Part shown: positions 3,691 to 35,937 of the stretch, one piece after another
Numbering within the stretch: position 1 is the stretch's first letter
Layout: the number at the start of each line of letters is the position of its first letter
Source of the DNA: a virus
Lineage: Duplodnaviria; Caudoviricetes
DNA: 64,000 nucleotides
Reading direction: 5' to 3' (one strand)
IMG/VR virus record: IMGVR_UViG_3300033066_001296
Location: 15,846-79,845 of that record
Position numbers and translations under genes: made by a program
The notes under the pieces: generated by a model
What the model was told of the DNA's origin: nothing
What the model saw: the letters and a program-made list of their open reading frames with translations, nothing else
Database searches by the model: none

Positions 3691-5217
3691 TCAATTCCGT
3701 TTCTGTTGTAGCCCAGCAACAATACCAGCAGCTCGAAGAGATGTCAGCAGATCCCATACAGAATCTAGAAGAGCATCTTGCGCCACATCACGACCATCAA
3801 AGCACAGACCGAGATCCACACCCGTCCCAAACGTAGAGGAATCTACAAGATCATAAGCGGGGATTGCCCGCCTTCCCCCTGAGTTTGGGCTGATGAGCTG
3901 GTCCGCGGTTGTTGCAGGGTCGTCGTAACAACCCCCGTAGTCTTCGATGGGCTCGATCTGGGAGATGTTCACGTAGAACGTGCCCCAAAGCTCCCGCTCA
4001 TCCGAAACCCAATTGATCGCGGGGAACATCGTGGGGCGAGGGTCGTCATACGTGAATACGTTCGAGCCCTCTCCCATGTCGTAAGCGGTCTCGAAGTCCA
4101 AGTCGAAAGGCTCCACAAACTCGAAGGTTGCGCGGTACGGTTCCAACAAGTTCTCGAGTGCCTTGCGAATTGCGACGGGTGTGATGTTCTCTGGAAGGTG
4201 TCGCAGCCTGTATGCAAGCGAGATCGCAGTTTCTCCGTTTGCAGCGGTGATCCCCCGCTCCACAGCAAGGAGCTCAAGCGAAGGGTCGCGACCTCCTGTT
4301 GTGCTTACAAGTTGCCTGACTTTGATGCTCGGATCTCCAAATGGAGGCTCTTCCACAAGCACACGAATGGTATCAATCTCGCCAGGAAGAGTAATTCCAC
4401 CATTTGTAACGACAGTTCCAGTAACGTTGTGTTGGTAGTTCTGGAATAGAGATCGTACGTTTGCGGATACGGGACCAAGATCCAGGGCTCCAAACACTGC
4501 ATCATTGAGCGTACGGAAGAACCTTCCACCTTCTGCTTGTACGATGGTGCCTGCCTTTACAGTAACAGCACCATGTGCCGCAGTGCGGTAGAACTCCACA
4601 ACACCTTCCGCAAAGCTCCCAAGCTGTGCGTAGGTGATGAAAGATCCCTCCGCAGTGTTCTTGATGGCCTCGGATGCCCTTGCATTGATCTTCGCAAATG
4701 CTTGCAGAAGCTCGTAACCCTCCCCTGCTTGTAGACCTTTCACATATTCAGGATCGAGAACCCTCTCTGCAAGTCTCAGATAGTAGGTCTGATCGTGCGC
4801 AGTGAATCCTGAATCGCTGTTAGGTGGAGGAGCGCCCGCTGCAAATTGTGGAATTGCAGTTGTAGGTGTTTCTACGATGGGGTTTTGTAGAGCATAGGAC
4901 CAGTTTTGCGAGAGCTCTTCCGCAGATGTGTTGATCTGGTAGGCGTAAAGCTGCGGAGAGTCTGGCCAGACTGGATCTCTCAAAACGTTGAAACGAAAGC
5001 CGCCTGTAATGGCAGTTCTGGAAGACCTTCCGGCGTACCTCTCCGTAAAGGCTGAGCCGTCGTACACGACCTCTTCAAACTGAAGACCAGGGAATCTGGC
5101 AAACAGCATTGTGCGTTGAAGTGACGGAGAGGATGTCACCTCGTAGGACAGCACTTGAGTGCTCGGAATCGTTGTCGAAGCAGTGGGCGCGACGTTCGCA
5201 ATAACTGGAACTGCCAT
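3691..5217 (-). CDS. Baseplate wedge protein (baseplate J-related domain)
   Basis: Likely start MAVPVIANV at 5217, overlapping the stop of the baseplate J gene; VTVKAGTIVQAEGGRFFRTLNDAVF and TTGGRDP...ETAISLAYRL resemble J-like wedge motifs. Confidence 0.6.
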   Translation of the reverse strand: MAVPVIANVAPTASTTIPSTQVLSYEVTSSPSLQRTMLFARFPGLQFEEVVYDGSAFTERYAGRSSRTAITGGFRFNVLRDPVWPDSPQLYAYQINTSAEELSQNWSYALQNPIVETPTTAIPQFAAGAPPPNSDSGFTAHDQTYYLRLAERVLDPEYVKGLQAGEGYELLQAFAKINARASEAIKNTAEGSFITYAQLGSFAEGVVEFYRTAAHGAVTVKAGTIVQAEGGRFFRTLNDAVFGALDLGPVSANVRSLFQNYQHNVTGTVVTNGGITLPGEIDTIRVLVEEPPFGDPSIKVRQLVSTTGGRDPSLELLAVERGITAANGETAISLAYRLRHLPENITPVAIRKALENLLEPYRATFEFVEPFDLDFETAYDMGEGSNVFTYDDPRPTMFPAINWVSDERELWGTFYVNISQIEPIEDYGGCYDDPATTADQLISPNSGGRRAIPAYDLVDSSTFGTGVDLGLCFDGRDVAQDALLDSVWDLLTSLRAAGIVAGLQQKRN

Positions 5218-15349: not shown

Positions 15350-16000
15350 ATGCAACGACTTGATTTGACAGGTCAAAAGTTCGGTAGACTTACGGTGGTA
15401 GAGTACATCAAAAAGGATGAGAAAGGGAAGATCTGGTGGAAGTGTATTTGCGACTGCGGAGAGTCAATCGAAACCTACACGCTGCTCCTAAGATCGAAAA
15501 AACAACAATCGTGCGGATGCTTGAGGAAAGAGACATCATCCAAGCACTGCGAAGGTATGACCAAGCACGGGCACTACAAAGGCAACAAACCCACGCCAGA
15601 GTGGTCTGCTTGGGCGGCGCTCAGAGCTCGTTGCTACGTTAAAACACACAAACAGTACAAGAACTACGGGGGCAGGGGAATCGCTGTTTGCGAACGCTGG
15701 CACACCTTCGATAACTTTCTGGAAGACATGGGGAAGAGGCCAGACAAAGGCTACTCAATCGATCGAATCGATAACTCGAAAGGATACGAGCCGGGAAACT
15801 GTCGGTGGGCAACTACCACCGAGCAAAACAACAATATGCGAACAAATAGACGAGTTTCTTACAACGGCGAGGAACTTACACTGGCGCAGTGGTGTAAAAG
15901 ACTTCACATATCGAGGGGTCTGTTGAAAGCCCCTTTGCAACGACTTGGTTCTTATGAGAAAGCTTTGGAGGAGATTATTGGCAAGCTCAAAGAACTTTGA
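15350..16000 (+). CDS. HNH homing endonuclease, antisense to the tail operon
   Basis: DLTGQKFGRLTV...WKCICDCG...SCGC...YGGRGIAVCERW..F..F.EDMG.RP...SIDRIDNSKGYEPGNCRWAT..EQ.NN phage HNH family. Confidence 0.92.
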   Translation: MQRLDLTGQKFGRLTVVEYIKKDEKGKIWWKCICDCGESIETYTLLLRSKKQQSCGCLRKETSSKHCEGMTKHGHYKGNKPTPEWSAWAALRARCYVKTHKQYKNYGGRGIAVCERWHTFDNFLEDMGKRPDKGYSIDRIDNSKGYEPGNCRWATTTEQNNNMRTNRRVSYNGEELTLAQWCKRLHISRGLLKAPLQRLGSYEKALEEIIGKLKEL

Positions 16001-18760: not shown

Positions 18761-19272
18761 TTTGCAGCCTTTGCTCTAGCGCGTTCCAAGGCTTCCTGAA
18801 TTCTCTTGTTGAAGATCTCCGCAATACGATCCGAGCTTTCGCTCACAATGCGACGAGGTTGGAAGCGCCAGCCCTGCCGCTTGTTGATTGCGTGCTTGAT
18901 CGCCTTGGCGACTTTACGAGCCTTTGGACCGGCCACACCGAGCTTCTGGTTGACCCACGCTTCCAAGTTGATGAGAGCATTGGGTCCGAGCTTGCGTGTC
19001 GTGGCGAGCACACCATACTCCACAGGACCCGCGTGCTTCACCTTGTTGAGCACCTTTACGGTCATGGCGGTGGGGGAGTATTCAAAATCCCAACCTGCCT
19101 GGAGCTTGCCTGAGGCTACGGCACCCGCACGCTTTGTCTTTGCAACAAGCACGGTTTTAGCCTGTCGAGCCGCTTGTTTCATTGCGGCTTCGATCTCCTT
19201 TTTGATGGAGATTCCGAGCATTCTTTCAAATGCGCCCACCTTGTTGATGGGAACTCGATACGTTAGGCTCAT
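18757..19272 (-). CDS. Neck/tail-completion protein (HK97 gp10-like)
   Basis: Basic 171 aa; ASGKLQAGW...VKVLNKVKHAGPVEYG motif. Confidence 0.6.
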   Translation of the reverse strand: MSLTYRVPINKVGAFERMLGISIKKEIEAAMKQAARQAKTVLVAKTKRAGAVASGKLQAGWDFEYSPTAMTVKVLNKVKHAGPVEYGVLATTRKLGPNALINLEAWVNQKLGVAGPKARKVAKAIKHAINKRQGWRFQPRRIVSESSDRIAEIFNKRIQEALERARAKAAK

Positions 19273-20537: not shown

Positions 20538-21935
20538 TCAAGCCCCGTGAATTAGAAGGGACCAGCGTTTATACCTAGCGCTGGTTCCGGGTGCGGTTGC
20601 ATCCGTGCGTGCTGGCCAGTCGGCATCGAGACGCCACGAAGCCTTCACGAGATCCTGGAAGCGGTTCTGAGGTGCGAGGATGATCATCTTCACACGCTCT
20701 GCGACGATCGAGATGCCATCGTTCGACACTTGAACGTCCGTCATCTTGCCGAGCATACCCGCGTCCGTGAGGTACATCAGAGGATCGCGGTAGTACTCCA
20801 TCATGCCACCGCGGCCCGTGAAGAGCATACGGTGGATTGGAGTGCCCGATGCCGTACCATCGCTGTAAAGCTCGCCTGCGAATGGGTCCTGCTGCGAGAA
20901 CGTGATACCGTCATTTGGATACACGGTGTTCACGTAAGGGCACTGGTTGTTCATGACGAACGAGCAACCAAGCATCATACCGAGCACCATGTCACGATAC
21001 ATATAGTGCTCAGGACGGCCCGTCAGCATTCGCTGGATTTCGGTATCCGCAAGGATTGCCGTCTGCGAGTTCGGATCGATGTGAACGTGATACGTACCAT
21101 CTTGGAAACGAGGCACGTTGTTGATCTGAAGCTTCGAGACCACCGTACGGATGTCCTGAAGGCGAGGAAGGTCCGTCGAACCGATGTCGTTGACCGACGT
21201 TCCGCCACCCACGAACGACACTTCCGAGCGATCGGAGGCAAGAACCGCCGCACGATCGGACCAGTTCATTGCCACTGCGAGCGTCAGAATGCCAGGACCC
21301 ACCTCATCTCCCGCCGTGTCAGGAGTGAAGCCGACCACCGATGCAGCCGTACCCCCCACCGTAATTGCAAGAGGGTTGGACGAAGACACGGTATTGAACC
21401 GAACCTTCGAGCCCGCTGCAAGGTCTGGACGACGGGCGCGAGTGAAGCCATTGAGGCGCTTCACACGGAGCGAGGCCGAGCTTCCGCCCGACGCAGCACC
21501 ATCTGCAACCGTCCAACCCGACTCTGCGGTGTTGTACATGCGGTCACGCACGATGATGTTGAGCGTCTGTGCCGCCTGGAGACCCAGCTTGCGAATGTGC
21601 TGGAGGAACAAGTTCGCAATCGCCATCGTTGCCGTAGGCATGTGGGTGTCGATTGCCGAGCCGTACGTGTGAAGCTCAGCTTCCCACTGCTCGACAGCAT
21701 ACGACTGCGGAGTTGGGTCTTCGCCGGGACGGATCGGACGAGCATCGGGAGCCATCAGACCGTCGCCCGAGAAGACGTAGGTGTCTCCTGCCTCTGCGGG
21801 CCAAGGCACCGCCGACACTTCCCCACGGAAGATCAAGTTGGGGAAGAGCACATCGTGGAAGGCTCTCTCAAGAAGACCTTCCTGAACGATCGCGCGAGTC
21901 GTTGGTGTGTTCAGAAACGTTGAAAAATCTGGCAT
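20538..21935 (-). CDS. Major capsid protein (N4-gp56-like, HK97 fold)
   Basis: 465 aa after scaffold; EQWEAELHTYGSAIDT...LGLQAAQTLNIIVRD and YHVHIDPNSQTAILAD...LGMMLGCSFV motifs. Confidence 0.85.
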   Translation of the reverse strand: MPDFSTFLNTPTTRAIVQEGLLERAFHDVLFPNLIFRGEVSAVPWPAEAGDTYVFSGDGLMAPDARPIRPGEDPTPQSYAVEQWEAELHTYGSAIDTHMPTATMAIANLFLQHIRKLGLQAAQTLNIIVRDRMYNTAESGWTVADGAASGGSSASLRVKRLNGFTRARRPDLAAGSKVRFNTVSSSNPLAITVGGTAASVVGFTPDTAGDEVGPGILTLAVAMNWSDRAAVLASDRSEVSFVGGGTSVNDIGSTDLPRLQDIRTVVSKLQINNVPRFQDGTYHVHIDPNSQTAILADTEIQRMLTGRPEHYMYRDMVLGMMLGCSFVMNNQCPYVNTVYPNDGITFSQQDPFAGELYSDGTASGTPIHRMLFTGRGGMMEYYRDPLMYLTDAGMLGKMTDVQVSNDGISIVAERVKMIILAPQNRFQDLVKASWRLDADWPARTDATAPGTSARYKRWSLLIHGA

Positions 21936-22006: not shown

Positions 22007-22849
22007 TCACATATCTCCGAGATCGAGGCCCTGAGAACGTGCGTACTCACGAAATTCTGCGGAAGACATCTTCATGGCGTGCTTCCGCTCCGTTGTTTCC
22101 GGTGTGACCTGTTCCTTGATCTCCTTTGGAGAAGGCTTTGGTGCAGATCCAGCGGGTGCTGTATTCGCAGGCACCTCTTCCACCGGAGCTTCCTTCTTCT
22201 CGGGAGCCTGGATGTACTGACGGAAGTAAGCTGGCTTCTTGGCCTTGAGCTCCTTGAAGAACTCGTTGTGGTCGAACTCCTTGCGCTTCGCATCAGGAAG
22301 ACGCTTGAAGTGACCATCGAGCTTGGAAAGCACGGCGTCTACTTCTTCAGGATCAACTTCAGCGAGGTATGCGTCGTGTCGAAGCACCATTTCGTTCTGG
22401 AGATTTTCGCATTGGCTGCGCCAGTGTCGAACCTTCCCTTCGAGCGAACGGATCTCAGCACGAAGCGTACGGACTTGCTCTTCCAGATCTGAGATCTGCT
22501 TTGCAGATCGGTTGTCTGTTTGAGGCTTTTGACCCGAAGGTTGACCCTGAGCTGGCCGCTTCTGGAACATCTCATCCAGCGAGCCGAAGCCCAGCGCCTT
22601 TGCCTTCTTCTCGTACATCTCCTTGAACGAAGTGCGACCCGCTTCACGATCCGCTTGGCGTTGCTTCGCAAGATCGCTTTTGGCGGGTTGTGCCTTCTGT
22701 TGAGGCTTGTACTTGGGAGCGGGCGTAGCCTCTTCAGGCTGCTCCTGCTCCGGTTGAACCTCAACATCGGGCACAACCTCGTCAATAAGTTCTGCCACTT
22801 CGTTTTCGTTTTCCAGATTCACATCCGGTGTATCGTTCTCAGTTGCCAT
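22007..22849 (-). CDS. Capsid scaffolding protein
   Basis: Acidic N-terminus, coiled coil, C-terminal AMKMSSAEFREYARSQG capsid-binding-type helix; directly upstream of MCP. Confidence 0.75.
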   Translation of the reverse strand: MATENDTPDVNLENENEVAELIDEVVPDVEVQPEQEQPEEATPAPKYKPQQKAQPAKSDLAKQRQADREAGRTSFKEMYEKKAKALGFGSLDEMFQKRPAQGQPSGQKPQTDNRSAKQISDLEEQVRTLRAEIRSLEGKVRHWRSQCENLQNEMVLRHDAYLAEVDPEEVDAVLSKLDGHFKRLPDAKRKEFDHNEFFKELKAKKPAYFRQYIQAPEKKEAPVEEVPANTAPAGSAPKPSPKEIKEQVTPETTERKHAMKMSSAEFREYARSQGLDLGDM

Positions 22850-23743: not shown

Positions 23744-24040
23744 TTACCACTTCACCTTGTCTGCCCAATATGCAGCGGAGAGCTTGCCCTTGGCGATGTT
23801 GGCCGCATGGCGAGCCTTGAAGGACTTCCGCTTTTTGGTCATACGTTCCGATTCCCCTGCCTTGGGCTTTCCGGCTGTTTCGGCTCCCTGCTCACCAAAG
23901 CGAATGGTCTTCACAGTGTCGCCCTCTTTGGCGACCACAATGTGAGACTTCGTAGGGTGATCGGGCGTGCGCTTTGGCTTGTTGTAGCCTGCTACACCCG
24001 CCTTTTCCAACCTGGGGTCTCTCTTTCCAGAGCCCTTCAC
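23744..24040 (-). CDS. Conserved basic phage protein (IRFG...RH...SAAYW family, DUF5754-like)
   Basis: KSHIVVAKEGDTVKTIRFGEQG...KSFKARHAANIAKGKLSAAYWADKVKW; GTG start at 24040 overlapping previous stop. Confidence 0.6.
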   Translation of the reverse strand: MKGSGKRDPRLEKAGVAGYNKPKRTPDHPTKSHIVVAKEGDTVKTIRFGEQGAETAGKPKAGESERMTKKRKSFKARHAANIAKGKLSAAYWADKVKW

Positions 24041-24153
24041 TTCTTCTTGCCCTTCTTCACGCAAGACTTGTCGATCATCTTTTGGATGAGCTTCTTGTCC
24101 TCTGCTTCGTCATCGTGCTTCTTGGGTGTCTTCTTTTGAGATTTCTTTGCCAT
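24037..24153 (-). CDS. Small lysine-rich protein
   Basis: MAKKSQKKTPKKHDDEAEDKKLIQKMIDKSCVKKGKKK; TGATG coupling to upstream gene. Confidence 0.5.
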   Translation of the reverse strand: MAKKSQKKTPKKHDDEAEDKKLIQKMIDKSCVKKGKKK

Positions 24154-24635
24154 CACATCATCCTTTCCTGCCCCTCGTCCTCTTCGCTTGGACTTGTCGT
24201 GAGCTGTCCTGCGCGCCAGAGCCATGCACCTACGAGGATTGGCTCTACTTCGACAATCTCGTTCTGAACACCCTCCTGTACGGCAAGCGCTTCGTCTGGG
24301 CTAATGCCAGATAGTAGTTCGGGCAGTCCATCACGCCAAAGATCCACCATCTCAAGAATCTGATCTGCGTGGTCTTCGGGAAGTTCGACCTCATCGTTGA
24401 GGAGAACTTCGGGGATCATATCGTGGATCTGCGACTCGATTTCCGGTAGGTGCATCTGGGTCAGCAGAATGATCTGATCCATCTCATTGGGGGTTTTCCC
24501 CTCCATGGCATCCGAACCCTCAAATGGCTCATCGCCGGGGAACGGCTCCTGGTCCTTAGGAGCATCCCAACCCTCGGGCGTGGAGCGAGGCTGATCGCCT
24601 CTAGCTTGTGACCAATTTGAAAGATCGAGTGCCAT
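24153..24635 (-). CDS. Acidic hypothetical protein
   Basis: 160 aa, strongly D/E-rich, coupled to neighbour. Confidence 0.55.
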   Translation of the reverse strand: MALDLSNWSQARGDQPRSTPEGWDAPKDQEPFPGDEPFEGSDAMEGKTPNEMDQIILLTQMHLPEIESQIHDMIPEVLLNDEVELPEDHADQILEMVDLWRDGLPELLSGISPDEALAVQEGVQNEIVEVEPILVGAWLWRAGQLTTSPSEEDEGQERMM

Positions 24636-24672: not shown

Positions 24673-24870
24673 TCAATCCGCTTGCATTCGCAAAGCAATG
24701 TCGCCGGGATCTTCTTCGTCATGAACCCCCGGCATATCAAGATCGCCAAACTGATTCTCAGTTTGAATGTGCAGAATTACATCAGCTACATCAACCTCCT
24801 TCTGTAGTTCGAGGGGGTGTGAGTGCCCGTGAATCTTTGTTGGAAGATTCATGTTTCTTGGGTGTTTCAT
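24673..24870 (-). CDS. Hypothetical protein
   Basis: 65 aa; ATGA overlap with 24867..25667. Confidence 0.45.
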   Translation of the reverse strand: MKHPRNMNLPTKIHGHSHPLELQKEVDVADVILHIQTENQFGDLDMPGVHDEEDPGDIALRMQAD

Positions 24871-25667
24871 TTGTGACCTTTGCGAAGCAGCCCACGCTTC
24901 TGGAAGAGGCGGTCAAATTCTCGAGCAATGGGATCAAACTCCCAACGATCCCAATACGCGCGATAACCATGCTCACGCCAAGAATTTGCATCTGCAAGGA
25001 ACCCTTTGACGCCCTGTACGGAGCCTTGGCGACGCATGACCCACTGCTCGTAGGAGCGCGCGAAGAGCTCTTGCGGCCTGAGCATATACGTGGTGGTTTT
25101 GAGCCTTGGCTCGTTGTGCTCGGTCTTGTTCCTCGTATGCTGTTCTGTGAGCTTCCGCACGCTATACGATTTGTAGATTGCCCGCATCAAAGGTGCAAGT
25201 TCGTGATTCGGATCTTTGGTTGCCTGAAACGATGCACAAGCTGAGTATGTAGGCTTGCCGCTTCCAAACAATCTGTGATCCAGGAAGTGCCCATACTCAT
25301 GAACGAGCGTGTTGATGGGGTATTTGCCGTGTTTATTGATCAAGATCGAGCTTCGATCCGAGTGTGGCTCCCATGCGCGGTAGACACCCATGGAACCCGT
25401 ATCTCCCACCACGTTGACCTTCAGGTGGTACAAGTCCCTGGGAACCCGATGCGTACGGTCAATGGTGCGTAGCGCCTCCGCAACGCCCTGGTTTGCCTTG
25501 GACGCGAATAGCAAGCCATAGCTTACGGAAAGCCTGTCAGACGCCTTTGCAGGGGCATTAGCGGGCACATGCGGAGACTGGTCCTTGACCCAATAGGCAC
25601 GGCGCACAACGCCCGTGCTGGTGTGTGCGGAGAGAATGCGTCGATGAAGACCGGAAAGGTTTTTCAT
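24867..25667 (-). CDS. Zincin-like metallopeptidase/LPD1-like protein with N-terminal array motif
   Basis: TLVHEYGHFLD (HExxH) and YMLRPQELFARSYEQWV (LPD1-like); N-terminus SGLHRR...GVVRRAYWVK matches the array motif. Confidence 0.75.
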   Translation of the reverse strand: MKNLSGLHRRILSAHTSTGVVRRAYWVKDQSPHVPANAPAKASDRLSVSYGLLFASKANQGVAEALRTIDRTHRVPRDLYHLKVNVVGDTGSMGVYRAWEPHSDRSSILINKHGKYPINTLVHEYGHFLDHRLFGSGKPTYSACASFQATKDPNHELAPLMRAIYKSYSVRKLTEQHTRNKTEHNEPRLKTTTYMLRPQELFARSYEQWVMRRQGSVQGVKGFLADANSWREHGYRAYWDRWEFDPIAREFDRLFQKRGLLRKGHK

Positions 25668-25814
25668 GCGGAAGGTGCCCCGAGAAAAAGAACGGAGGGT
25701 GTATTTTGTCCGTAACCTTTTCCTCGCTTCTCTCGTACTACCATACAGTCTTTATTACTATTATTTATTATATATAGTATAGAGTGGGTTGAGGGGGGCT
25801 CTTTTGATGCTCGC

Positions 25815-26336
25815 TCAACGAGTATAGTTGCGGTACGCATCATAGGCTCGATGAAAGCTCTGATGGTGCTTGTTGTAGAGTCCCGCACCCTCTACTACGG
25901 TTCTATAGAGCCCATACATCTTGAGCCCTGTTCCAGCGAGGTGTGCAAAGCTTCCAAGAGCTCTCTCCGTGGATTCCCTCATATTGAGTGTGCGAGCGAG
26001 AACATGACCACTCAATCTTCCGGCTTGTCTTCCCGCTTGACCTCCAAAGTGACCTCCCACAAGAGCTGCACCAAATGCAGCCTCATGAGCTCCAACTCCA
26101 TGGCTCGCCGCTGCTCTCATTCCATACTTTGCAGCATGGTGAGCTCCCACAAGAGCTCCTAGTCCCGCTCCAAGATTACCCATTCCGTGTCCGAGAGCTC
26201 TGCCTTGATCCTCTCGACGAGATGGATGTTCCATGCTCTTGAACGAGCCTTTGGGATCGGACTTGACCCAATAAGAGCGGAGACCCTTTCGAGTGCTCTT
26301 CTTGATCTTCTTGAGGCCAGATCTAGTCTTCATCAC
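25815..26336 (-). CDS. Array protein 8: basic N-motif plus glycine zipper
   Basis: MKTRSGLKKIKKSTRKGLRSYWVKS; GNLGAGLGALVG...GGHFGGQAG. Confidence 0.75.
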   Translation of the reverse strand: MMKTRSGLKKIKKSTRKGLRSYWVKSDPKGSFKSMEHPSRREDQGRALGHGMGNLGAGLGALVGAHHAAKYGMRAAASHGVGAHEAAFGAALVGGHFGGQAGRQAGRLSGHVLARTLNMRESTERALGSFAHLAGTGLKMYGLYRTVVEGAGLYNKHHQSFHRAYDAYRNYTR

Positions 26337-26827
26337 GCCATTCTAGCAGCTTGAACCGTATCGTACAGCTTCCGAGCGTGGAGGTATCCACCCGCAGCCA
26401 TTGCAAATGTACCCAAAGCTCGCTGATGTCGAAGCTTCATCTTACCTTGAGCAACACGATTTCCAACACCGCGACCGAGCTTATAGCCCGCAAAAGAGCC
26501 TCCGGCGTAACCCGCGATATGGCCCAATCCTCCGGCGACAATGCCAGTTCTCATTCCCGATATGAGGGCTTCTTGAGGTCCAAGACCTTTCTTTGCAGCC
26601 CTGTGCCCGCCAATAAGCCCCCCGGTGATGGCTCCTCCAAAGAGTCCCGCAGTGCCACCTACACGCCCGCCAAGCGCGCTTCCAAGCACGCCCATACCGC
26701 GGCGAAGGTGGTTGTGAGAAAACCTCTTTTCTGCCTCTGCGGAGGTCCAGTAAGCGCGACGAACACGCTTCCCGTTCTTACCCTTTACAGACTTTACGAC
26801 TTTCTTGAGCCCTGCTCGACTCTTCAT
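26333..26827 (-). CDS. Array protein 7: basic N-motif plus glycine zipper
   Basis: MKSRAGLKKVVKSVKGKNGKRVRRAYWTS; GSALGGRVGGTAGLFGGAITGGLIGG. Confidence 0.75.
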   Translation of the reverse strand: MKSRAGLKKVVKSVKGKNGKRVRRAYWTSAEAEKRFSHNHLRRGMGVLGSALGGRVGGTAGLFGGAITGGLIGGHRAAKKGLGPQEALISGMRTGIVAGGLGHIAGYAGGSFAGYKLGRGVGNRVAQGKMKLRHQRALGTFAMAAGGYLHARKLYDTVQAARMA

Positions 26828-27360
26828 GATGATCTCCTTGGTGTGCGAATTGCACGCGCTGTTGCCTTACCAGCCTCAGCAATATGATGATCTGCAATTG
26901 CGTGTCCTAGAAAAGACACAGCCTCGTTAGCGAGGAAGCTACCGACTCTCTTACCATACTTTCCAGTTGAACCTCTCAGGCTGCGACCAACGGCTTTGCC
27001 AGCACGCTCTGCTCCATAATCGATCAGGCGTTGCCCTGCGGCATTGACGAGGTGCTCTCCGAGTCTGGCTCCAAGTCCTTTTCGGAATTTGTGAAAGCCT
27101 TTAACAGCAGCGCTCTTGTGCTTTTCGATTTCAACTTTGTGCTTCCAGAGGTTCTCATTGGAAAACGAGGCTCGGTGCTTGTATGCCAGAGCTCCCAAAC
27201 CTGCGGTTGCAAGAGCGCCCGCAGTACCAATCAGAGCCTTTTTGCCATGCTTCTTTGCGAAAGCAGAAACGGAAGACTTCGCACGCACCCAATAAGATCT
27301 CCGTACAGAGCCCTTCTTGCCTTTGACAGTCTTGGTTACTTTACGAAGTCCAGCTCTCAT
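26824..27360 (-). CDS. Array protein 6: basic N-motif plus hydrophobic helix
   Basis: MRAGLRKVTKTVKGKKGSVRRSYWVRA; KHGKKALIGTAGALATAGLGALAYKH. Confidence 0.75.
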   Translation of the reverse strand: MRAGLRKVTKTVKGKKGSVRRSYWVRAKSSVSAFAKKHGKKALIGTAGALATAGLGALAYKHRASFSNENLWKHKVEIEKHKSAAVKGFHKFRKGLGARLGEHLVNAAGQRLIDYGAERAGKAVGRSLRGSTGKYGKRVGSFLANEAVSFLGHAIADHHIAEAGKATARAIRTPRRSS

Positions 27361-27995
27361 CGCTGCATCCTATTCGCAACCCACTCGGCACCGCGCTTGA
27401 TGTGGGGAGCTGCTCTACCTCTTGCCACAAAGCCTCCCGCGTGGCCACCTAGGAAGCTTCCCACTGCACCTCCTGCACCACCACCAAATGCAGTACCAAG
27501 AGCACCACCAAGACGAGAGCCCACATGAGTTCCAATGTGCTCTGCCGCAGCTTCACCTCCAACGTGGGTCATATGCTCAGCAAGCTTGGACCCTTCACCT
27601 CTGCGCCACTGTGTGAAGCCCTCTCTAGCCTTGCCCCAGGCACTACGAACGTGCTCGTTGGCCCGTTCTCTTGCCGAGGGCTTTCTGTTTGCAGGCTCAT
27701 GAAATGCGGTGTGTCCCGATCCAGAACCGAGTTGCAATGGAGAGCTGCCCGCCCCTAGAAGCTTGCCAGAGCCGCCCTTGCGCATCCGATGGAGTCCATA
27801 TGCCGCAGCCCCGGCAAGAGCCAAACCCCCTACGATCTTCCCCGCGTTACGGCGAAGAAAGCCGGGTTGCTTCTGAGCAACTGGCTGGCCCTTCCTTGCG
27901 GCCTGGTTGGCTTTAACCCAATAGGTTCTGCGAACAGTGCCTTTCTTTCCTTTGACTGTCTTCTGAACCTTCTTGAGCCCCGCTTTGTTGGCCAT
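27357..27995 (-). CDS. Array protein 5: basic N-motif, hydrophobic helix and glycine zipper
   Basis: MANKAGLKKVQKTVKGKKGTVRRTYWVKA; GKIVGGLALAGAAAYG; GSRLGGALGTAFGGGAGGAVGSFLGG. Confidence 0.75.
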   Translation of the reverse strand: MANKAGLKKVQKTVKGKKGTVRRTYWVKANQAARKGQPVAQKQPGFLRRNAGKIVGGLALAGAAAYGLHRMRKGGSGKLLGAGSSPLQLGSGSGHTAFHEPANRKPSARERANEHVRSAWGKAREGFTQWRRGEGSKLAEHMTHVGGEAAAEHIGTHVGSRLGGALGTAFGGGAGGAVGSFLGGHAGGFVARGRAAPHIKRGAEWVANRMQR

Positions 27996-28447
27996 TACTT
28001 CCTCTTTCTAGGCTTGCGTGTGGCTACGATCTTGCCAGACTTGGAAGGTCCAGTTCCAGATCGACCGCTCGAGACCCCTGGGCCAAGTTGCAAAGGAGCT
28101 CTTCCAGAGTTGTGAAGATCCTGGCGCTTCCAGTCCGCATTGGAGTTTGCGTGTTGGGAGACTGCCTTGTTGTGAAGATTCTTCCAGAATCCACCATGGC
28201 GATCCACAACATGCTTCCAGTGTTTTGGGGTCGTCTTGGGCGGTTGGATGCTCTTGTACTTATGATGAGCAAGAGCCAGACCGGCTGCAAGAACCGCACC
28301 CCCAAGGATCTTGCCCTTGTGGCGAAGAGCAAACGTGCCCGCATTCTTTACAGATTGCTTGGCCCGGACCCAATAAGATCTCCGCACAGATCCTTTTCGG
28401 CCTCTGACAGTTTTTGTGATCTTACGAAGTCCTGCTTTGCTCGCCAT
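27995..28447 (-). CDS. Array protein 4: basic N-motif plus hydrophobic helix
   Basis: MASKAGLRKITKTVRGRKGSVRRSYWVRA; RHKGKILGGAVLAAGLALAHH; start at 28447 via TAATG overlap. Confidence 0.75.
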   Translation of the reverse strand: MASKAGLRKITKTVRGRKGSVRRSYWVRAKQSVKNAGTFALRHKGKILGGAVLAAGLALAHHKYKSIQPPKTTPKHWKHVVDRHGGFWKNLHNKAVSQHANSNADWKRQDLHNSGRAPLQLGPGVSSGRSGTGPSKSGKIVATRKPRKRK

Positions 28448-28869
28448 TAGCCGGTTCTCTTGACCCTGCCGTGAGTATTGCCCTGCGCATCTTTGATTGG
28501 ATATCCGCGCCAAGCTCTATAACGCTTTGTAATTGCATCAGAAGCTTTCCCGTACGGCGTTGAGGACCAACCCTGCGCATAGCCTTTTGCAGCGTGCGCC
28601 TGCACCGCATCGGGCATCCACTGAGCTTGCTGTGCAGCTTTCGTGAACTTCACGGACCTCTCCGATGCGTGGAATCGCGCATGTGCCCTTCCAGCCCCGG
28701 CAATGATGGCGAATGTGCCCAAAGTGGCAAGGGCAATCTTACCTTTGTGACGCCCAACCGCTCTTGCTACTTTTGATGCAGAGGTCTTAGCGCGGACCCA
28801 ATAAGAGCGCTTAACCAATCCACGCTTTCCGCGGACGGTCTTCGTAACTTTCTTGAGTCCTGATCTCAT
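28447..28869 (-). CDS. Array protein 3: basic N-motif plus hydrophobic helix
   Basis: MRSGLKKVTKTVRGKRGLVKRSYWVRA; RHKGKIALATLGTFAIIAGAG. Confidence 0.75.
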   Translation of the reverse strand: MRSGLKKVTKTVRGKRGLVKRSYWVRAKTSASKVARAVGRHKGKIALATLGTFAIIAGAGRAHARFHASERSVKFTKAAQQAQWMPDAVQAHAAKGYAQGWSSTPYGKASDAITKRYRAWRGYPIKDAQGNTHGRVKRTG

Positions 28870-29417
28870 TAGTCAGCTCTCTTGCGACTCACAGCCTTGC
28901 GAACTCTCGATCCCGCAGCACGAGCTCCTGATGCGACTGCACTACCTGCACGGGAAGCGAGTCCCGATACCGCATTCTTCGCGATTGAGCTTCGGCTCAT
29001 GCCAGCCTTACGCCCGCCTCTCACGAAGTCTGCGGCATTCCGAGCTGCCCCTCTTGCATCACTTGCGGCCTTATGAGCCTTCGCAGCGACACCCACCACA
29101 CCATGAGCCCCGCGCTCTGCTGCGCCCTTGGCACGGTCCTTCAGACCGCCAAAGACGGCCTTCGCAGCATCACCATGGGACATGCCCATGCCGCGGTAGC
29201 CCTTCACGAACTTGGCACCCTTGTAAGCTGCGGCGGCTCCGAGAGCCAGGCCAGCACCCGCGGCAATCTTGCCCTTGTGCTTGCCGATGAACTTACCTGC
29301 CGACTTTGCTGCACCCTTCACGGCGCTCGAAGCCTTGACCCAATAGGAACGCTGCACCGTTCCCTTCTTACCCTTTACAGACTTTGTAACTTTACGAAGC
29401 CCAGCACGATTTGCCAT
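28869..29417 (-). CDS. Array protein 2: basic N-motif plus hydrophobic helix
   Basis: MANRAGLRKVTKSVKGKKGTVQRSYWVKA; KHKGKIAAGAGLALGAAAAYK. Confidence 0.75.
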   Translation of the reverse strand: MANRAGLRKVTKSVKGKKGTVQRSYWVKASSAVKGAAKSAGKFIGKHKGKIAAGAGLALGAAAAYKGAKFVKGYRGMGMSHGDAAKAVFGGLKDRAKGAAERGAHGVVGVAAKAHKAASDARGAARNAADFVRGGRKAGMSRSSIAKNAVSGLASRAGSAVASGARAAGSRVRKAVSRKRAD

Positions 29418-29468
29418 TTTTTACCTCTTACAGACTTTGGTATCTGTCAATATCAAGCGGACTCAGAA

Positions 29469-29888
29469 TCAGCCGAGTCCGCCCTTACCCTTGCCAAACA
29501 AGTTTTTTCTTCCTGCAACAGCACGAATACCTTCGTGAGCCATTGCACCTGCAAAATGACCAACACCATGGCCAACATCGGAAGAAAGAAAGTTTTTGAT
29601 CTTACCCCCAAGCGTGCGACCATGTGTTTTTGTCTTCTTTCTCATGTGTGCTGCAAGAGTGTGGTTGACTGCCGCAGACGCCAAAGATGCACCTCTCACA
29701 CGATGAGCACCTAGCAGACCACTAGCAAAGCCTATTTTGGCTCCCATTTTTGCGGAAGCCATCTTTGGCCCTTTGCGGAATGCTGCCAAATTACGCTCTC
29801 CGGCTTTAACCCAATAAGAGCGCTTCGTAGAGCCTTTCTTACCCCGCACTGTTTTAGTTACTTTGCGAAGTCCGGCACGATTTGCCAT
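29469..29888 (-). CDS. Array protein 1: basic N-motif plus glycine-rich helices
   Basis: MANRAGLRKVTKTVRGKKGSTKRSYWVKA; start 29888. Confidence 0.75.
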   Translation of the reverse strand: MANRAGLRKVTKTVRGKKGSTKRSYWVKAGERNLAAFRKGPKMASAKMGAKIGFASGLLGAHRVRGASLASAAVNHTLAAHMRKKTKTHGRTLGGKIKNFLSSDVGHGVGHFAGAMAHEGIRAVAGRKNLFGKGKGGLG

Positions 29889-29919: not shown

Positions 29920-30174
29920 TCAAATGTTCTCTTTTGTAGAGTCCAGCAAAAGTTTACGCTGGTTTCTCAACTCAAGCCAAGCACGAATTCCAAAAAGATC
30001 ATGGAGGATATAGCGGAGGATCAACCAGATCCCCAACCTCCATGCGGTTCCAGAGGTCATGTGCGCGTGAAAGATGGCGGCATCCCCAGGTCCCGCTACG
30101 TAGAGCTCCACCATCGGACCTGTTCCGATGGCAGTAACCTCTGCGTACCCATCGTTTCGATGAAACGGTCTCAT
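29920..30174 (-). CDS. Hypothetical protein
   Basis: 84 aa; ATGA overlap with methylase gene. Confidence 0.45.
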   Translation of the reverse strand: MRPFHRNDGYAEVTAIGTGPMVELYVAGPGDAAIFHAHMTSGTAWRLGIWLILRYILHDLFGIRAWLELRNQRKLLLDSTKENI

Positions 30175-31088
30175 CGAGTTCTCCCTTCCTTCCTGAGCGT
30201 CTTTTGGAGCGCCTTCTCGAGATTGTTACTTGCAGAGAATTTTGGCTTGAAGCCGTGACGAATTTCAAGTGATTCTGGATAGTTCATCCACAATACTTCC
30301 GTCTTCTGTCGATCCTCTTTATCGAGAAAGTTCGCTGAGCTTGCGTTTGCGCTGTATTCGACCCTTCTCCAGTCTTTGTATGCCTGATCGTAAAAGTCTC
30401 CAGCGTATCCAGAAATTGCAATGAGAGCTCCCCGTCTAGTTGCTTCCAAGTTTGAGGCCAGGAGCTTCTCATGCCATGCAGCATCCATCTCGTGCTGATA
30501 TCCGTGCCCCGCACCCCGGCTTGCCGGATGGTACGGAGGATCTTCATAGATGAAAACGCCACTCTTGCCGTAGTACTTCACCAACTCCACGGCATCGGTG
30601 TTGTTGATCTCGACACCACGAAAGAACTCTGCGTATTCTTGAAAGAGCTCGAGCTTGTTACTTACAGCTCTCGCTACGGAGCCTTTGGGGGTTCCACGGC
30701 GGAAGCCTTCGATGGTTTGCTGCATCCCCGCAAAATTCTGGGTCTGCCGCACCCAAACCCTGCGCGCGAGCTCTAGCTCGTCTTCTGGGTCTTGCGTCCA
30801 ATCTCGACACGCTCGTTGCTCATCAAATGCGTAGGGGGTAAGCTCGCAAACCCTCCGAAGTTCCTCGGGACGTTCTCGAAGTACTTTGAAGAACGTAACA
30901 ACGCCCCTGTTCAGATCATTGATGACTCGATTTGGGTAAAGCCCCTCGGGCAGAGCAAAGAAGAGCGCACCCGAACCGAAGCACGTCTCTACGTAGGTCT
31001 CAGGGCCTTTTGGAAAGTGCGGAAGTATCTTCTCTGCAATCTGGCTCTTTGCTCCGTAGTAACAACCAAATACTGATCCTTTAATCAT
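30171..31088 (-). CDS. dam: DNA adenine methyltransferase (Dam/D12 class)
   Basis: YYGAKSQIA...YVETCFGSGALFF...VINDLN motif I region and IYEDPPY motif IV. Confidence 0.9.
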   Translation of the reverse strand: MIKGSVFGCYYGAKSQIAEKILPHFPKGPETYVETCFGSGALFFALPEGLYPNRVINDLNRGVVTFFKVLRERPEELRRVCELTPYAFDEQRACRDWTQDPEDELELARRVWVRQTQNFAGMQQTIEGFRRGTPKGSVARAVSNKLELFQEYAEFFRGVEINNTDAVELVKYYGKSGVFIYEDPPYHPASRGAGHGYQHEMDAAWHEKLLASNLEATRRGALIAISGYAGDFYDQAYKDWRRVEYSANASSANFLDKEDRQKTEVLWMNYPESLEIRHGFKPKFSASNNLEKALQKTLRKEGRTR

Positions 31089-32044
31089 CCTCGCCTGCGT
31101 CCTCTTGTATGTGCATTAACCTTTACGGAACCTGCACCTCTTGCCGCGGGTGACTTGCTCTTGCGATTTGCCTGCACTTCTTCCTTCGGTGCGACGCGAG
31201 TTCCACCAGCCTTCGTCTTCACAGTTGCAGATCCAGATGCGTGCATCTTGAGGATCTGAAGCTTGCTCTTCTCGCGTAGGGTCTGTCGTATTGACTTCTG
31301 CCGATCCCGCACTCCCTTTGTGTTGGACTCCTGTCCTTGCGACTTCACCTCGTTCAAGCGCTCCTGTGCGGCAATCTTGGCCGCAGCTCTCTGAGCTTGG
31401 GAAGCCTGTGCCACGGAATGCACCTCTCGAAGACGTTGGATCTTCTTCTTGTGAGCTTCTTCCTTGAGCTTGTCACGGGCTGCATAGTCCTGGGCACGAG
31501 TCTGTGCCTTGTGATCCATAAGCTTCTCGTGCTTGATCTTCAGACCACGGACGTGCTCGTCCACCTTCTGAACTTGCCTACGATGCAGCTCACCCCGTGT
31601 GGTTTCTCGGATCATGTCCGCATGAGGCCCACCATACTTCTGTGCGTGGTCCCAGACCTCGCGAAGATGCGTGTGGCTCATTTGTGTGATCTCAGGATCA
31701 CCGCGCTTCACCTTCGCAATGTTCTCGAAGATACGCTGATCGTTCTTGAGCCTGGACATCGTGCCTTGGAATGCAGTGTGTGCAAACGCAAACAGAGCGG
31801 TCTTGAGCAGACCGCTCCTGCCACTGCGCATACCACGTTCGAGGAACTTGCTGATTGCAACACCACCCGCCATACGAGCGGTGGCACGCCCAGCATCCGA
31901 AGTTACGTATTCCTTGGCAGACGGTAGGTTTCCGTGGACACCCTCGTAGTCCCTACGATGCTGGTTGATGTGCTCTTTACCAGCACCATACGCACTCTTT
32001 ACGTGCTCTCCAGCATTACGGATATGCTCACTGAACTTTGCCAT
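31085..32044 (-). CDS. Basic His-rich protein, putative internal virion protein
   Basis: 319 aa K/R/H-rich; GEHVKSAYG resembles NEHVRSAWG of 27357..27995; C-terminal SVKVNAHTRGRRRG. Confidence 0.6.
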   Translation of the reverse strand: MAKFSEHIRNAGEHVKSAYGAGKEHINQHRRDYEGVHGNLPSAKEYVTSDAGRATARMAGGVAISKFLERGMRSGRSGLLKTALFAFAHTAFQGTMSRLKNDQRIFENIAKVKRGDPEITQMSHTHLREVWDHAQKYGGPHADMIRETTRGELHRRQVQKVDEHVRGLKIKHEKLMDHKAQTRAQDYAARDKLKEEAHKKKIQRLREVHSVAQASQAQRAAAKIAAQERLNEVKSQGQESNTKGVRDRQKSIRQTLREKSKLQILKMHASGSATVKTKAGGTRVAPKEEVQANRKSKSPAARGAGSVKVNAHTRGRRRG

Positions 32045-32056
32045 GCGAGAAGATTA

Positions 32057-32446
32057 TCAAGTTCCAGGACCAAAAACGAGCTTATCGGGGTTTGGGCCTC
32101 TGTCAATCCAGACATAAACCCAATCTGGATGCTTTGCCGCTGCCTTTTCCGCAGCAGGCGCACAGGACTTGCACGCAAACGCCTCAGAGATTCTGAAAAG
32201 AGGCCCCCACTTCGAGTGCATGATCATGTCGTAGAACTTCTCTGGATTCTCATTCTTCAACACCGTAAGCGCAGGGTCCTTCTCCATCATGGTTTTGTAC
32301 TCACCATACGTATGAATGCGAATCAGCGGAGGAGCTTCGCATCCCATGCACTTGTCTGTAGGACGAAATGCATACTTCTGATGGAACTCCTGCGGAGTAA
32401 TGAGCCCATCTTGGAACTTTTTACGGTGGGTGATCTTGTTATTCAC
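32057..32446 (-). CDS. Hypothetical Zn-binding protein
   Basis: GTG start at 32446; CMGC...CKSC. Confidence 0.55.
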   Translation of the reverse strand: MNNKITHRKKFQDGLITPQEFHQKYAFRPTDKCMGCEAPPLIRIHTYGEYKTMMEKDPALTVLKNENPEKFYDMIMHSKWGPLFRISEAFACKSCAPAAEKAAAKHPDWVYVWIDRGPNPDKLVFGPGT

Positions 32447-32885
32447 GATCCCATTTCTCTTTCTTTGTCTTGTCAGGTGTCTTTTTGACAGTTTTTTGAG
32501 GTGCAAATGCAGATTCCGCAAGCACCTTCTTCGGGTCTCGGATGCGAAAGAGGGGCACTGTGCTCCCTCGCACCATCGCGGCGTCAATGGCACCGTCCTG
32601 AACTTGCCCTGTAACCCACTCTTCCGTCTCTCGTACAAGTTTTCGGAGTGTGAGCATGTCCATCCAATGATCCTCTGGATGTGCCTTCTGGATCTTTCGA
32701 TAGCGAATTCCCCAGGGGCCATCTACGAATGAATCATTCTCTCTGGGTTTTCCGAGAAAGACAGGGGTGTTCAAGATGTCCACATCCTTTACGTGGAGAG
32801 GCTCTATGACTCTGCCCTTGTTGTAGACGATGTTCCGGCCTTTGCTGTGGATGATTGTTGGCATCGGACTGGACAAATGTTCCAC
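32439..32885 (-). CDS. Hypothetical protein
   Basis: 148-aa ORF coupled to downstream gene. Confidence 0.5.
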   Translation of the reverse strand: MEHLSSPMPTIIHSKGRNIVYNKGRVIEPLHVKDVDILNTPVFLGKPRENDSFVDGPWGIRYRKIQKAHPEDHWMDMLTLRKLVRETEEWVTGQVQDGAIDAAMVRGSTVPLFRIRDPKKVLAESAFAPQKTVKKTPDKTKKEKWDRE

Positions 32886-33357: not shown

Positions 33358-33978
33358 ATGATTGTCCTCGGGCTCGACATCTCAATGACCGCAACAGGTT
33401 GGGCTATTGCCAATGTAAGCGGTCAGAAACCAAGCTTGCTTCGTTGCGGTGTGATTGAAACCAAGAAGAGCAAAGGTAAAGGTTCCGGTACGCTCGACTC
33501 CATTCGCAGAGCGCACCACATCTATGTTGAACTTGGAAAGGTACTTTCTTCAGAGCTTGGGCTGAAGATCGATCTGATCTGTCTGGAATCGATGAGCTGG
33601 CCCCGCAACGCCTCATCTTCGATCAAGATGGCAATTGCATGGGGGGCGATTGCTCCGCTACTTGCGGATCGCCCCCTCATTCCTGTTGGGCCGATGGCTT
33701 TGAAGTTGGCGGTTAGCGGGAAGAAGACTGCTTCAAAGGCAGAAGTGGCTTCTGGGGTTCGCTCTTTGATGCCGAAGGCGACTTCGCGGGTTTTGAAGGA
33801 GTTTGTCCCGAAGGCTTCTTTGCAGGAGCATTGTTGGGACGCGCTTGGGGCGATCCTGGCTTCGATGAAGACGGAGAAGTTCCAGCTTTTGAAGGCTGGC
33901 CTTTCGGAGCGGAAGACTGCCCCGATTTCGCCACCCGAGGAGCTCCGGGTTTCTGGAGAGCCCCCTGCTTACCCATGA
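33358..33978 (+). CDS. RuvC-like Holliday junction resolvase
   Basis: MIVLGLDISMTATGWA (D), LICLES (E), KLAVSGKKTASKAEV, HCWDALG (D). Confidence 0.88.
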   Translation: MIVLGLDISMTATGWAIANVSGQKPSLLRCGVIETKKSKGKGSGTLDSIRRAHHIYVELGKVLSSELGLKIDLICLESMSWPRNASSSIKMAIAWGAIAPLLADRPLIPVGPMALKLAVSGKKTASKAEVASGVRSLMPKATSRVLKEFVPKASLQEHCWDALGAILASMKTEKFQLLKAGLSERKTAPISPPEELRVSGEPPAYP

Positions 33979-35782
33979 CGCCCATCTGGTTTGGATCTGG
34001 TTGAGGCTGTGAAGCCTGTACCATCGCCTTGACCATCTCCTGACTCTGGGCTGCTGTGTTGGCTACCCAGATGTCCTGGTGCTTCGATCGATACTGAACA
34101 AGCGTCAGATCTCCATCGGGGATTGCACCAAGCTGCAAAGCACCTTCACGATACTCGTTGATCGTGCAGATACCCTGCGCAAGAGCTTCCTTCCACGTCA
34201 TTGCATCAGGCCCCTCTGGCTCTTCGGGAGCTGCTCCTTCTTCGCCTTCTGCACCCTCTTCGCCCGTATCGGCAGACATTGCCGCGTCCTCTTCCGCCTT
34301 CTTCAGCGCATGGATCTCCTTGAGCGGATCCAACTCTGTGAGACCCATCCAATACTTGATGGCTGTCTCCTTGGTCAGAACCTCGGAGTCTTTGCCAGTT
34401 GTAGCAATGCGCTGTGCGGTCTCGATATCTGTGAATGTAGGTTTGAAGTAGTGAGGCCACTGGAGCTCGCAAACCTGTCCATTGCCCACCACACGAGGAA
34501 TCGTAACTTGATCTCCATCTGGCTGCGCGATGACCCTCTTTGGAACGTAGACACGATAGCGAATGCGCCGCACCGAACCATCTTCGTTTTGTACTTCGCG
34601 AATACCCTCTACAGTTCGTACAGCCTTTAGCACCTTCTGGCAGATACGGATGATTGCAGGTCCATACTGTTCTCGGAGAGAGTCTGCCTTCTCGATCATG
34701 GAGTGGAAGATTCTCTCGATCTCCATGGCAGTCTTTTCGCCATTGTTCTGGAAGAGAATCTGATCTGGAACACACTGGCAGAGTCGATAGATGCGCTCCT
34801 CTAGCTTCTCAAGAACTGTGATTCCAATAGTAGGTCCAGAACCGCTCAGTTCGAGATACTGAGCGGTGCTGCTTGGCCCAAGAAACAGAGCATTGTCCGA
34901 ACCCTTTCTAACAGTGCCGGGGTTCTCCATATCTGTAACGATATTAAGCGTTGGATCACAGTTAGATACGGTCCCGTACCAGATTTCAGCGAGCAACTGA
35001 TCGACTGCTTCGAGCATTCGATAGGCACCGTGACAATCGGAGTCCCCATCGATCTCGTCATCCGATCGGAGGTTTTGGATCCACTCGTACGGCACAAACC
35101 CCAGACCGTGAGGAACTGTGTTTCGCTGCATGTACTCCCAGCGAGGTTCCTTGTTACGGCATTTGATGGGCCTCCATACCGTATCGTTCTCTTCGTCCAC
35201 AACGCGCCGATACCAGTACCAGATGGTCTTGTAGCGACCGTCTTCCTGCTTCTCGTCCTTCGGGTACGTATACTGAATGGTCAGCTTCGTGAGCCTGTTG
35301 GAGCCCCTACCATCGAACTCAGGTTCAGTCCAACGAGGGTCCAGCGCTTCAAACTGGCACATACCATCCAGAATCTTGAAACCCACACAAGCCGAGCCTG
35401 TAGCACCTCCGTAGTTACGGGCTTGCGTCATTGCAGCCCAGAACTCGCCCTGCTTTAGAAGTGCGGAGAGGTAATCCTGTGTGCGCTCATCATCAGGCAC
35501 AAGAACTCTTGGTTGCTTCTGATTGGAAAACAGAAGTCCTGTGAAGCGGGAGACAATGTTTCGTACAATGCCAAGTGGAGCGACGGGACGACGGAAGTCA
35601 CGGGGGACATCTCCTGCGTTCTCCATTCCGGGCGGCACAACACCCTCTCGCTGGACGGCATCCCACATATCGCCCGAGAGGACGGGCCTCCCGTTCCATT
35701 CGTGACCCTTTCCGTCGTGCTCGCAGACACGGAAATAGCTCCATAGGTTATTGAGCTCTCTTTGCCGTTTGGAGAGCTTCAT
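33713..35782 (-). CDS. Portal protein (SPP1-like) with long acidic then P/K/S-rich C-terminal tail
   Basis: IVRNIVSRFTGLLFS...ARNYGGATGSA...HGLGFVPY.WIQN...DGDSD...LEAVDQLL portal motifs; start 35782 (alt. 35869). Confidence 0.85.
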   Translation of the reverse strand: MKLSKRQRELNNLWSYFRVCEHDGKGHEWNGRPVLSGDMWDAVQREGVVPPGMENAGDVPRDFRRPVAPLGIVRNIVSRFTGLLFSNQKQPRVLVPDDERTQDYLSALLKQGEFWAAMTQARNYGGATGSACVGFKILDGMCQFEALDPRWTEPEFDGRGSNRLTKLTIQYTYPKDEKQEDGRYKTIWYWYRRVVDEENDTVWRPIKCRNKEPRWEYMQRNTVPHGLGFVPYEWIQNLRSDDEIDGDSDCHGAYRMLEAVDQLLAEIWYGTVSNCDPTLNIVTDMENPGTVRKGSDNALFLGPSSTAQYLELSGSGPTIGITVLEKLEERIYRLCQCVPDQILFQNNGEKTAMEIERIFHSMIEKADSLREQYGPAIIRICQKVLKAVRTVEGIREVQNEDGSVRRIRYRVYVPKRVIAQPDGDQVTIPRVVGNGQVCELQWPHYFKPTFTDIETAQRIATTGKDSEVLTKETAIKYWMGLTELDPLKEIHALKKAEEDAAMSADTGEEGAEGEEGAAPEEPEGPDAMTWKEALAQGICTINEYREGALQLGAIPDGDLTLVQYRSKHQDIWVANTAAQSQEMVKAMVQASQPQPDPNQMGVMGKQGALQKPGAPRVAKSGQSSAPKGQPSKAGTSPSSSKPGSPQARPNNAPAKKPSGQTPSKPAKSPSASKSEPQKPLLPLKQSSSR

Positions 35783-35937
35783 GTGCTTCGATCCAGGCTC
35801 CCCACTCGATTCTCTTAGGAGATCCCCTGTAAATTCCCGAGCTGTGTCGGGTTCGCGCGTTACTGGCATGAGTAAAGATTACACTCCCATTTGATGCGTG
35901 TCATTGTCTTCCTGTACAGATGTTGTACTCTGCCTGT

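Follow-up and report, generated by a model that had tools for sequence, protein, structure and literature searches.

A conserved N-terminal beta-hairpin shared by nine head-region genes of an uncultured myovirus is a candidate capsid-targeting tag

Nine consecutive minus-strand genes at 24867–29888 of the window analyzed here (the whole 64-kb stretch, positions 15,846 to 79,845 of the IMG/VR virus record IMGVR_UViG_3300033066_001296) encode proteins that share an N-terminal motif of approximately 27 residues, hereafter the tag. The array, whose genes are denoted g1 to g9, is flanked by portal and scaffold/coat genes. On the combined evidence of conservation, genomic context and structure prediction we suggest, with moderate confidence, that the tag is a hairpin targeting internal or ejected proteins to the capsid. 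The source record of 79.8 kb, of which the window is a part, is 90% complete according to CheckV and belongs to a contractile-tailed phage (an uncultured myovirus), with sheath, tape measure and baseplate genes present. As a rule, virion proteomics of cultured phages is the sole source of information on which phage proteins reside in the head and are injected together with the DNA; if the tag works as proposed, the head-internal or injected set of an uncultured lineage could be read from sequence alone.

The Tag and Its Family

The tag has the consensus GLxKVxKTVxGKKGxVRRSYWV[KR]A, begins 1–5 residues past the Met, and is strongly basic, with about 10 Lys/Arg per 27 residues. A loose regular expression for the motif end yields nine matches in the six-frame translation of the 64 kb, all at the N-termini of g1–g9, and the tag profile finds exactly the same nine genes in the window and in the whole record. 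This confirms the preliminary description of the locus, made from the window sequence, which had reported nine genes sharing an N-terminal motif, mostly translationally coupled and placed between the portal and scaffold/major capsid protein genes; the latter two features are also observed. TAATG or ATGA overlaps are present at every junction from g2–g3 to g7–g8, a 147-nt gap lies upstream of g9, and the flanking genes are located as expected (Table 1). Promoter and terminator scans gave chance-level results only.

A profile built from 26 tags was compared with 1.84 billion representative proteins, and 198 representatives (clusters at 50% identity) were retrieved at E ≤ 1e-3, 54 of them at E ≤ 1e-10. 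Among the 150 of these 198 matches that are listed, 148 carry the tag at the extreme N-terminus (start residue 1–5), and the remaining two, starting at residues 10 and 14, look like mis-called gene starts. The tag Tyr occupies residues 23–26 in 146 of the 150, and all 150 proteins are 59–291 amino acids (aa) long; therefore, there is no large fused form among them. The information content is 3–4 bits per position over approximately 26 tag positions, decreasing to about 1 bit five residues beyond the invariant Tyr-Trp pair.

Searches of the tag against Pfam and PHROG gave no match, the best match in a PDB sequence search was at the chance level (E 4.5), and a literature text search for the motif strings found no relevant paper containing them. 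Judged by these comparisons, the motif is an undescribed family, in line with the preliminary description, which had recognized none; a match to a known nucleic-acid-binding domain, named there as a point to check, is found neither in Pfam nor in PDB.

The tag DNA is 61–79% identical between copies, with synonymous divergence (pS) of 0.74 among paralogs, that is, saturated, and non-synonymous divergence (pN) of 0.19. Because synonymous sites are saturated and pN is low, we conclude that the copies are old and that selection at the protein level has preserved their likeness. Hence we reject the recent duplication that had been suggested from a common 5′ run of g1 and g2, which is identical but short, and the proposed expandability of the array by duplication loses its support with it.

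AlphaFold2 predicts the same two-stranded beta-hairpin (strands 7–16 and 19–28) in two different tagged proteins. For g9 the mean predicted local distance difference test score (pLDDT) is 93.6; in g5 the tag has pLDDT of 81–87, and the body is a low-confidence helix. None of the structural matches to g9 extends upstream of residue 37, which places the hairpin outside the zincin core, as an appendage. The tag is thus predicted to be a free-standing beta-hairpin in both proteins. A complex prediction with the coat protein, the scaffold, the acidic protein p160 (see below) and the tag scored 0.00, which, without controls, says nothing either way.

A second version of the tag, G-K-x-Y-Q-R-S-[VM]-[ML]-V-K, has no Tyr-Trp pair and is found in the same phage as the standard one (Table 1). 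Judged from the sequence alone, a Sec or Tat signal in the tag is unlikely: there is no hydrophobic core, and the RR-containing stretch that precedes the hydrophobic helix is located approximately 45 residues in and is unlike the Tat order.

The Tagged Peptidase

By sequence and model, g9 has a complete zincin active site and is predicted to be catalytic: it contains HEYGH at residues 123–127, Y194 and E200, with the H, E, Y and E invariant across 46 homologs. The nearest structures to the zincin model are Pro-Pro endopeptidases (Z 9.1 and 8.8; for PPEP-2, Z 9.1, root-mean-square deviation 3.3, 146 residues aligned), and the catalytic domain of anthrax lethal factor scores Z 8.2; Foldseek against PDB gave weak zincin matches only (best E 0.02), and VIA-align was needed. 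Further, g9 has a PHROG match, family 4529 (“minor head protein and DNA pilot”), and the viral protein structures (BFVD) most like it belong to “head morphogenesis domain” proteins (E 4e-11) or to large polyvalent proteins. A “head morphogenesis” protein of an Akkermansia phage, itself with no Pfam match, also matches g9, and a close relative, P0061, has a precomputed annotation with PF18796 (LPD1).

In longer homologs the same module lies at the C-terminus of head proteins, among them a Phage_Mu_F protein of 699 aa (31% identity, E 4e-18) and a Phage_min_cap2 protein of 499 aa. Out of ten long prophage homologs, six score above the Phage_Mu_F cut-off and one below it; the remaining three are a Portal_Mu fusion, a VG15 fusion and a protein without any match in Pfam. 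The Pfam scan of g1–g9 detects no Phage_Mu_F or Phage_min_cap2 domain. Elsewhere, therefore, the zincin module is as a rule covalently tied to a head-incorporated domain, while here only the hairpin stands in front of it; this is the strongest, albeit indirect, argument that the hairpin gives head incorporation. The whole 79.8-kb record has no match to Phage_Mu_F, Phage_min_cap2, S78, S77 (PF03420), ClpP or S49, which extends beyond the window the earlier statement that no prohead protease or Mu-gpF gene is recognizable. With a tagged zincin and no known prohead protease in the genome, how the head matures becomes a question accessible to experiment.

Composition of the Other Tagged Proteins

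The bodies of g1–g8 form one class rather than arbitrary cargo. All are basic (isoelectric point, pI, 10.8–12.0), contain 21–40% of Gly and Ala, and have one weakly hydrophobic Gly/Ala helix at about residues 40–70, bordered by basic residues; the hydrophobicity maximum (Kyte-Doolittle, 19-residue window) is 0.9–1.5, below that of typical membrane spans. Similarity can still be detected within the pairs g5/g6 and g7/g8, and the g5 group has a conserved glycine-zipper-like C-terminal module in common. Hence the proposed complete divergence of the bodies does not hold.

Pfam, PHROG and PDB sequence searches of the g1–g8 bodies gave nothing significant; g5 has a weak tape-measure-like match in the PHROG search, the glycine-zipper family PF13488 has no match in g1–g8 at E ≤ 0.1, and the ESM Atlas returns only unnamed viral clusters with scores below 0.8. 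In Pfam scans of 50 relatives, the only recurring domains are the glycine zipper (Gly-zipper_Omp, six relatives at E ≤ 0.01, sub-threshold, e.g., P0078 with 22.6 bits against the cut-off of 25 bits) and LPD1 (two relatives). The idea of variable basic cargo is retained in part: the proteins are basic, mostly with pI of 11–12, and relatives have a few other body types, but most bodies belong to one class, so tabulating the fused domains does not support a freely variable set.

Relatives and Genomic Context

Loci of relatives were collected by the portal search, a degenerate DNA pattern and the peptidase search; 98 out of 120 metagenome matches of the DNA pattern were due to chance and lacked the tag. 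All tag-bearing viral, metagenome-assembled genome (MAG) and metagenome contigs with enough flank have the same head/neck synteny and belong to one phage lineage, in which coat identity ranges from 48 to 99% and phages have 4–11 tagged genes each. As far as sampled, the tag seems restricted, by sequence comparison, to this one uncultured myovirus lineage. One of its contigs, L027 (CAZTYU010000033.1, 7965 bp), is binned in a Bdellovibrionales MAG, which is either a possible host hint or a binning artifact.

No array that is seen in full lacks a tagged peptidase. Additional tagged genes lie beyond the array, between neck genes, after the sheath or beside p160, and in relatives tagged genes are always found among late structural genes; the linkage of the motif to head genes, on which the initial proposal depended, is thus observed in all contigs with flank. 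For example, in the metagenome relative L177, whose coat and sheath are 99 and 100% identical to those of the window phage, an extra tagged gene (3953–4426) separates two neck genes, which in the window are directly adjacent (19269–19272), so the gene is present in one of two near-identical phages and absent from the other. Its body is not Gly-rich and also occurs in L024, L144 and L027. Such bodies are few in relatives and comprise a 184-aa helical type, a type of approximately 155 aa and an 80-aa type; a Pfam search of them gave no match.

Capsid Targeting and Alternative Explanations

Under capsid targeting, expression of the coupled genes late in infection would yield the zincin endopeptidase together with eight small proteins that are very basic and rich in Gly and Ala. 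The hairpin would dock them on a procapsid component (scaffold, portal or the inner coat surface) before DNA enters, and the docked proteins would be enclosed as the shell closes. After packaging they would lie with the DNA and exit the head with it at infection, the basic charge of the bodies helping to neutralize DNA, and the hydrophobic, glycine-zipper helices suiting membrane insertion at entry. The tagged zincin, taking the place of the same peptidase tethered to MuF or portal, would be co-loaded; it may trim tags or scaffold inside the head, substituting for a prohead protease, or act in the host, with possible cleavage at the sharp conservation boundary that follows the tag. The inferred parts of this scheme are the virion location, docking, cleavage and ejection of the proteins and the functions of their bodies.

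The modular head-loading tag of the preliminary description is thus supported in part and indirectly, by the N-terminal position and autonomy of the hairpin, purifying selection, location in late regions and presence on a peptidase that is head-tethered elsewhere, while recent duplication and free choice of cargo are not supported. Several observations weigh against it. The tag is unlike any known targeting signal, the LPD1 match of g9 that follows HExxH is slightly sub-threshold (E 5.8e-6, 26.7 bits against the cut-off of 27), and a cultured relative was not found among 50,697 phage records. By sequence, the low cargo diversity may fit a paralogous family with a conserved N-terminal domain equally well, and the tag, being very basic, could bind nucleic acid instead.

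The latter explanation would make the hairpin a nucleic-acid-binding beta-ribbon and g1–g9 a DNA-coating family with a DNA-tethered peptidase, present in the head owing to another signal. The Lys/Arg content of the tag, the high pI of the bodies and the predicted ribbon agree with it, two-stranded ribbons being a shape used by known DNA binders. Still, we regard it as unlikely, as no nucleic-acid-binding family in Pfam or PDB matches the tag, the invariant Gly, Leu, Tyr and Trp and the fixed distance from the N-terminus exceed what charge needs, and the peptidase relatives are tethered to MuF or portal rather than to DNA-binding domains. Moreover, head entry would still require contact with the procapsid, because, to our knowledge, DNA-bound proteins cannot pass the portal during packaging. 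The helices bordered by basic residues in g1–g8, the sub-threshold Gly-zipper_Omp matches in six of the 50 relatives, the tape-measure-like match of g5, and the translational coupling, which suggests fixed stoichiometry, point in another direction, to an assembly element: tags of paralogs would pair in a common beta-structure of a hetero-oligomeric membrane-active complex (an entry channel, a lysis or exclusion device), not necessarily in the capsid. This seems rather improbable to us, given that the hydrophobicity maxima are below those of typical membrane spans, the copy number of 4 to 11 and presence or absence between near-identical phages are odd for a fixed complex, the soluble zincin and other non-Gly bodies bear the same tag, and the location between portal and scaffold is conserved.

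Finally, the hairpin could serve the tagged zincin chiefly as a recognition element or propeptide, either a substrate handle or an autoinhibitor, with localization achieved by other means. Zincins bind substrates as an added beta-strand, each array seen whole includes the tagged zincin, conservation falls sharply right after the tag, and no other protease is recognizable in the genome. We give this explanation little credence: the peptidase is itself tagged and its homologs are head-tethered, pointing to co-localization, and such a role is compatible with capsid targeting and does not exclude it.

If capsid targeting is true, a large MuF-tethered polyvalent protein may be replaceable by separate small genes, each with a short address label, and the tag could offer a small module for bringing foreign proteins into capsids, a use that the signals of T4 and P1 already have. 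A stronger version we find doubtful. In it, one 27-residue hairpin would stand in this lineage in place of the MuF tether and of the classical prohead protease system alike, act as a general transferable loading signal, and be accompanied by a co-loaded zincin that matures the head by proteolysis of tags and scaffold. Were it true, the zincin would be the first metalloprotease in that role, and the signal would, by being readable in sequence, reveal the injected proteome of uncultured phages.

Comparison With Known Systems

Encapsulin cargo-loading peptides are short terminal peptides that dock diverse cargo inside an HK97-fold shell; they are usually C-terminal, are not basic hairpins, and act in non-viral compartments. 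Experimental precedent for N-terminal capsid-targeting signals comes from T4 and P1 (PMC3012670, PMC9024508). As in T4 IPI–III and Alt, where a short conserved N-terminal peptide is carried by otherwise diverse, basic, head-internal myovirus proteins (PMC3012670, PMC5694885), we observe a conserved short N-terminal peptide common to otherwise dissimilar head-region proteins, with packaging proposed here. The likeness to T4 internal proteins extends to clustering of the genes and variability between relatives, and in T4 the protease is co-assembled in the core (PMC3012670, PMC5694885). However, the T4 capsid-targeting sequence is 10–20 aa long and is removed by the S77 protease gp21, whereas the tag is a predicted 27-aa hairpin of unrelated sequence, and the sole protease recognized in the record, with no PF03420 match, is the tagged zincin.

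In P1, approximately 30 N-terminal residues of DarB suffice to send a protein into a myovirus head (PMC9024508), and the Dar system includes MPTase-bearing polyvalent-type proteins such as DdrB (PMC9024508, PMC5512222). On the contrary, the Dar proteins have no consensus N-terminus (PMC9024508), while here one motif is common to all members and the cargo proteins are small. The catalytic module of g9 is homologous to that of MuF/SPP1 gp7-type and polyvalent MPTase-LPD1 proteins, and g9 shares the HExxH zincin fold of the latter (Iyer et al., 2017); it differs in having only the hairpin in front, with no MuF, minor-capsid-protein-2 or portal domain, and in being a single-domain 266-aa protein rather than a part of a multidomain, virion-delivered one. 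In the N4 virion RNA polymerase, the MPTase-containing region is required for encapsidation (PMC5512222). Inner-body and ejection proteins of phiKZ and SPN3US are also head-internal paralogs with N-terminal targeting propeptides, some having a transmembrane segment in the mature part (PMC5694885); in these jumbo phages an S77-like protease cleaves the propeptides, most of which exceed 100 aa, and no sequence relation to the tag was found. On the proposed reading, the system would belong to an established category, that of capsid-targeting signals and their internal proteins, and the new elements are the undescribed hairpin motif and the unusual tagged zincin.

Neighboring Genes

On the minus strand, the head module consists of the portal, two small genes, a basic 319-aa protein, a Dam-type methyltransferase, an 84-aa protein and the array, followed by p65, p160, a 106-aa protein, two beta-rich proteins, the scaffold-like protein and the major head protein.

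Table 1. Genes of the tagged array, its neighbors, and loci of the second tag variant (window coordinates unless a contig is named).
Feature	Position	Strand	Remarks
g1, 139 aa	29469–29888	–	Tag and basic Gly/Ala-rich body, pI 12.0
g2, 182 aa	28869–29417	–	Tag and basic Ala/Gly-rich body, pI 11.9
g3, 140 aa	28447–28869	–	Tag and basic body, hydrophobic helix ~45–63; start overlaps g2 stop (TAATG)
g4, 150 aa	27995–28447	–	Tag and basic body; start ATG overlaps g3 stop
g5, 212 aa	27357–27995	–	Tag hairpin 7–28, hydrophobic helix 46–73, glycine-zipper-like C-terminal helix; g6 paralog
g6, 178 aa	26824–27360	–	Tag and basic body, C-terminal module in common with g5
g7, 164 aa	26333–26827	–	Tag and Gly-rich basic body, weak similarity to g8
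g8, 172 aa	25815–26333	–	Shortened tag and Gly-rich basic body
g9, 266 aa	24867–25667	–	Diverged tag hairpin 7–28 and zincin endopeptidase, C-terminal part matching LPD1
Portal	33713–35869	–	
Two small conserved genes, 148 aa and about 129 aa	32057–32885	–	After portal; overlapping, different frames
Basic 319-aa protein	31085–32044	–	Between portal and array
D12-class adenine methyltransferase	30171–31088	–	E 3e-20
p65, 65-aa open reading frame	24673–24870	–	After array in gene order
p160, acidic 160-aa protein	24153–24635	–	pI 4.1; follows array in every relative with flank
106-aa protein	23744–24064	–	PHROG 7595 match, 4e-42
Scaffold-like coiled-coil protein	22007–22849	–	
Major head protein	20538–21935	–	
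Second tag variant, L008	7766–8410 and 8429–8809		
Second tag variant, L027	1725–2252 and 7065–7586		

In relatives with flank, p160 is kept directly after the array with 29–89% identity, and could be a partner, chaperone or adaptor for the very basic tagged proteins. The 221-aa open reading frame listed at 32057–32885 is probably an over-extended call covering the two small post-portal genes, of which the product of about 129 aa is Cys-rich; a Pfam search of these two proteins (p148 and p129), the 84-aa protein and p65 gave no match. The 319-aa protein has no family match, and its C-terminus carries a short conserved motif, V-x-V-x-A-H-[TS]-R-G, in all close relatives (L001, L003, L004). The 106-aa protein also matches an internal piece (534–604) of PHROG 220 “minor head protein and DNA pilot” and is a second polyvalent-protein-type module, free-standing in the head region and here without the tag. 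The place of the adenine methyltransferase within the head module, with the portal on one side and the array on the other, is conserved in relatives.

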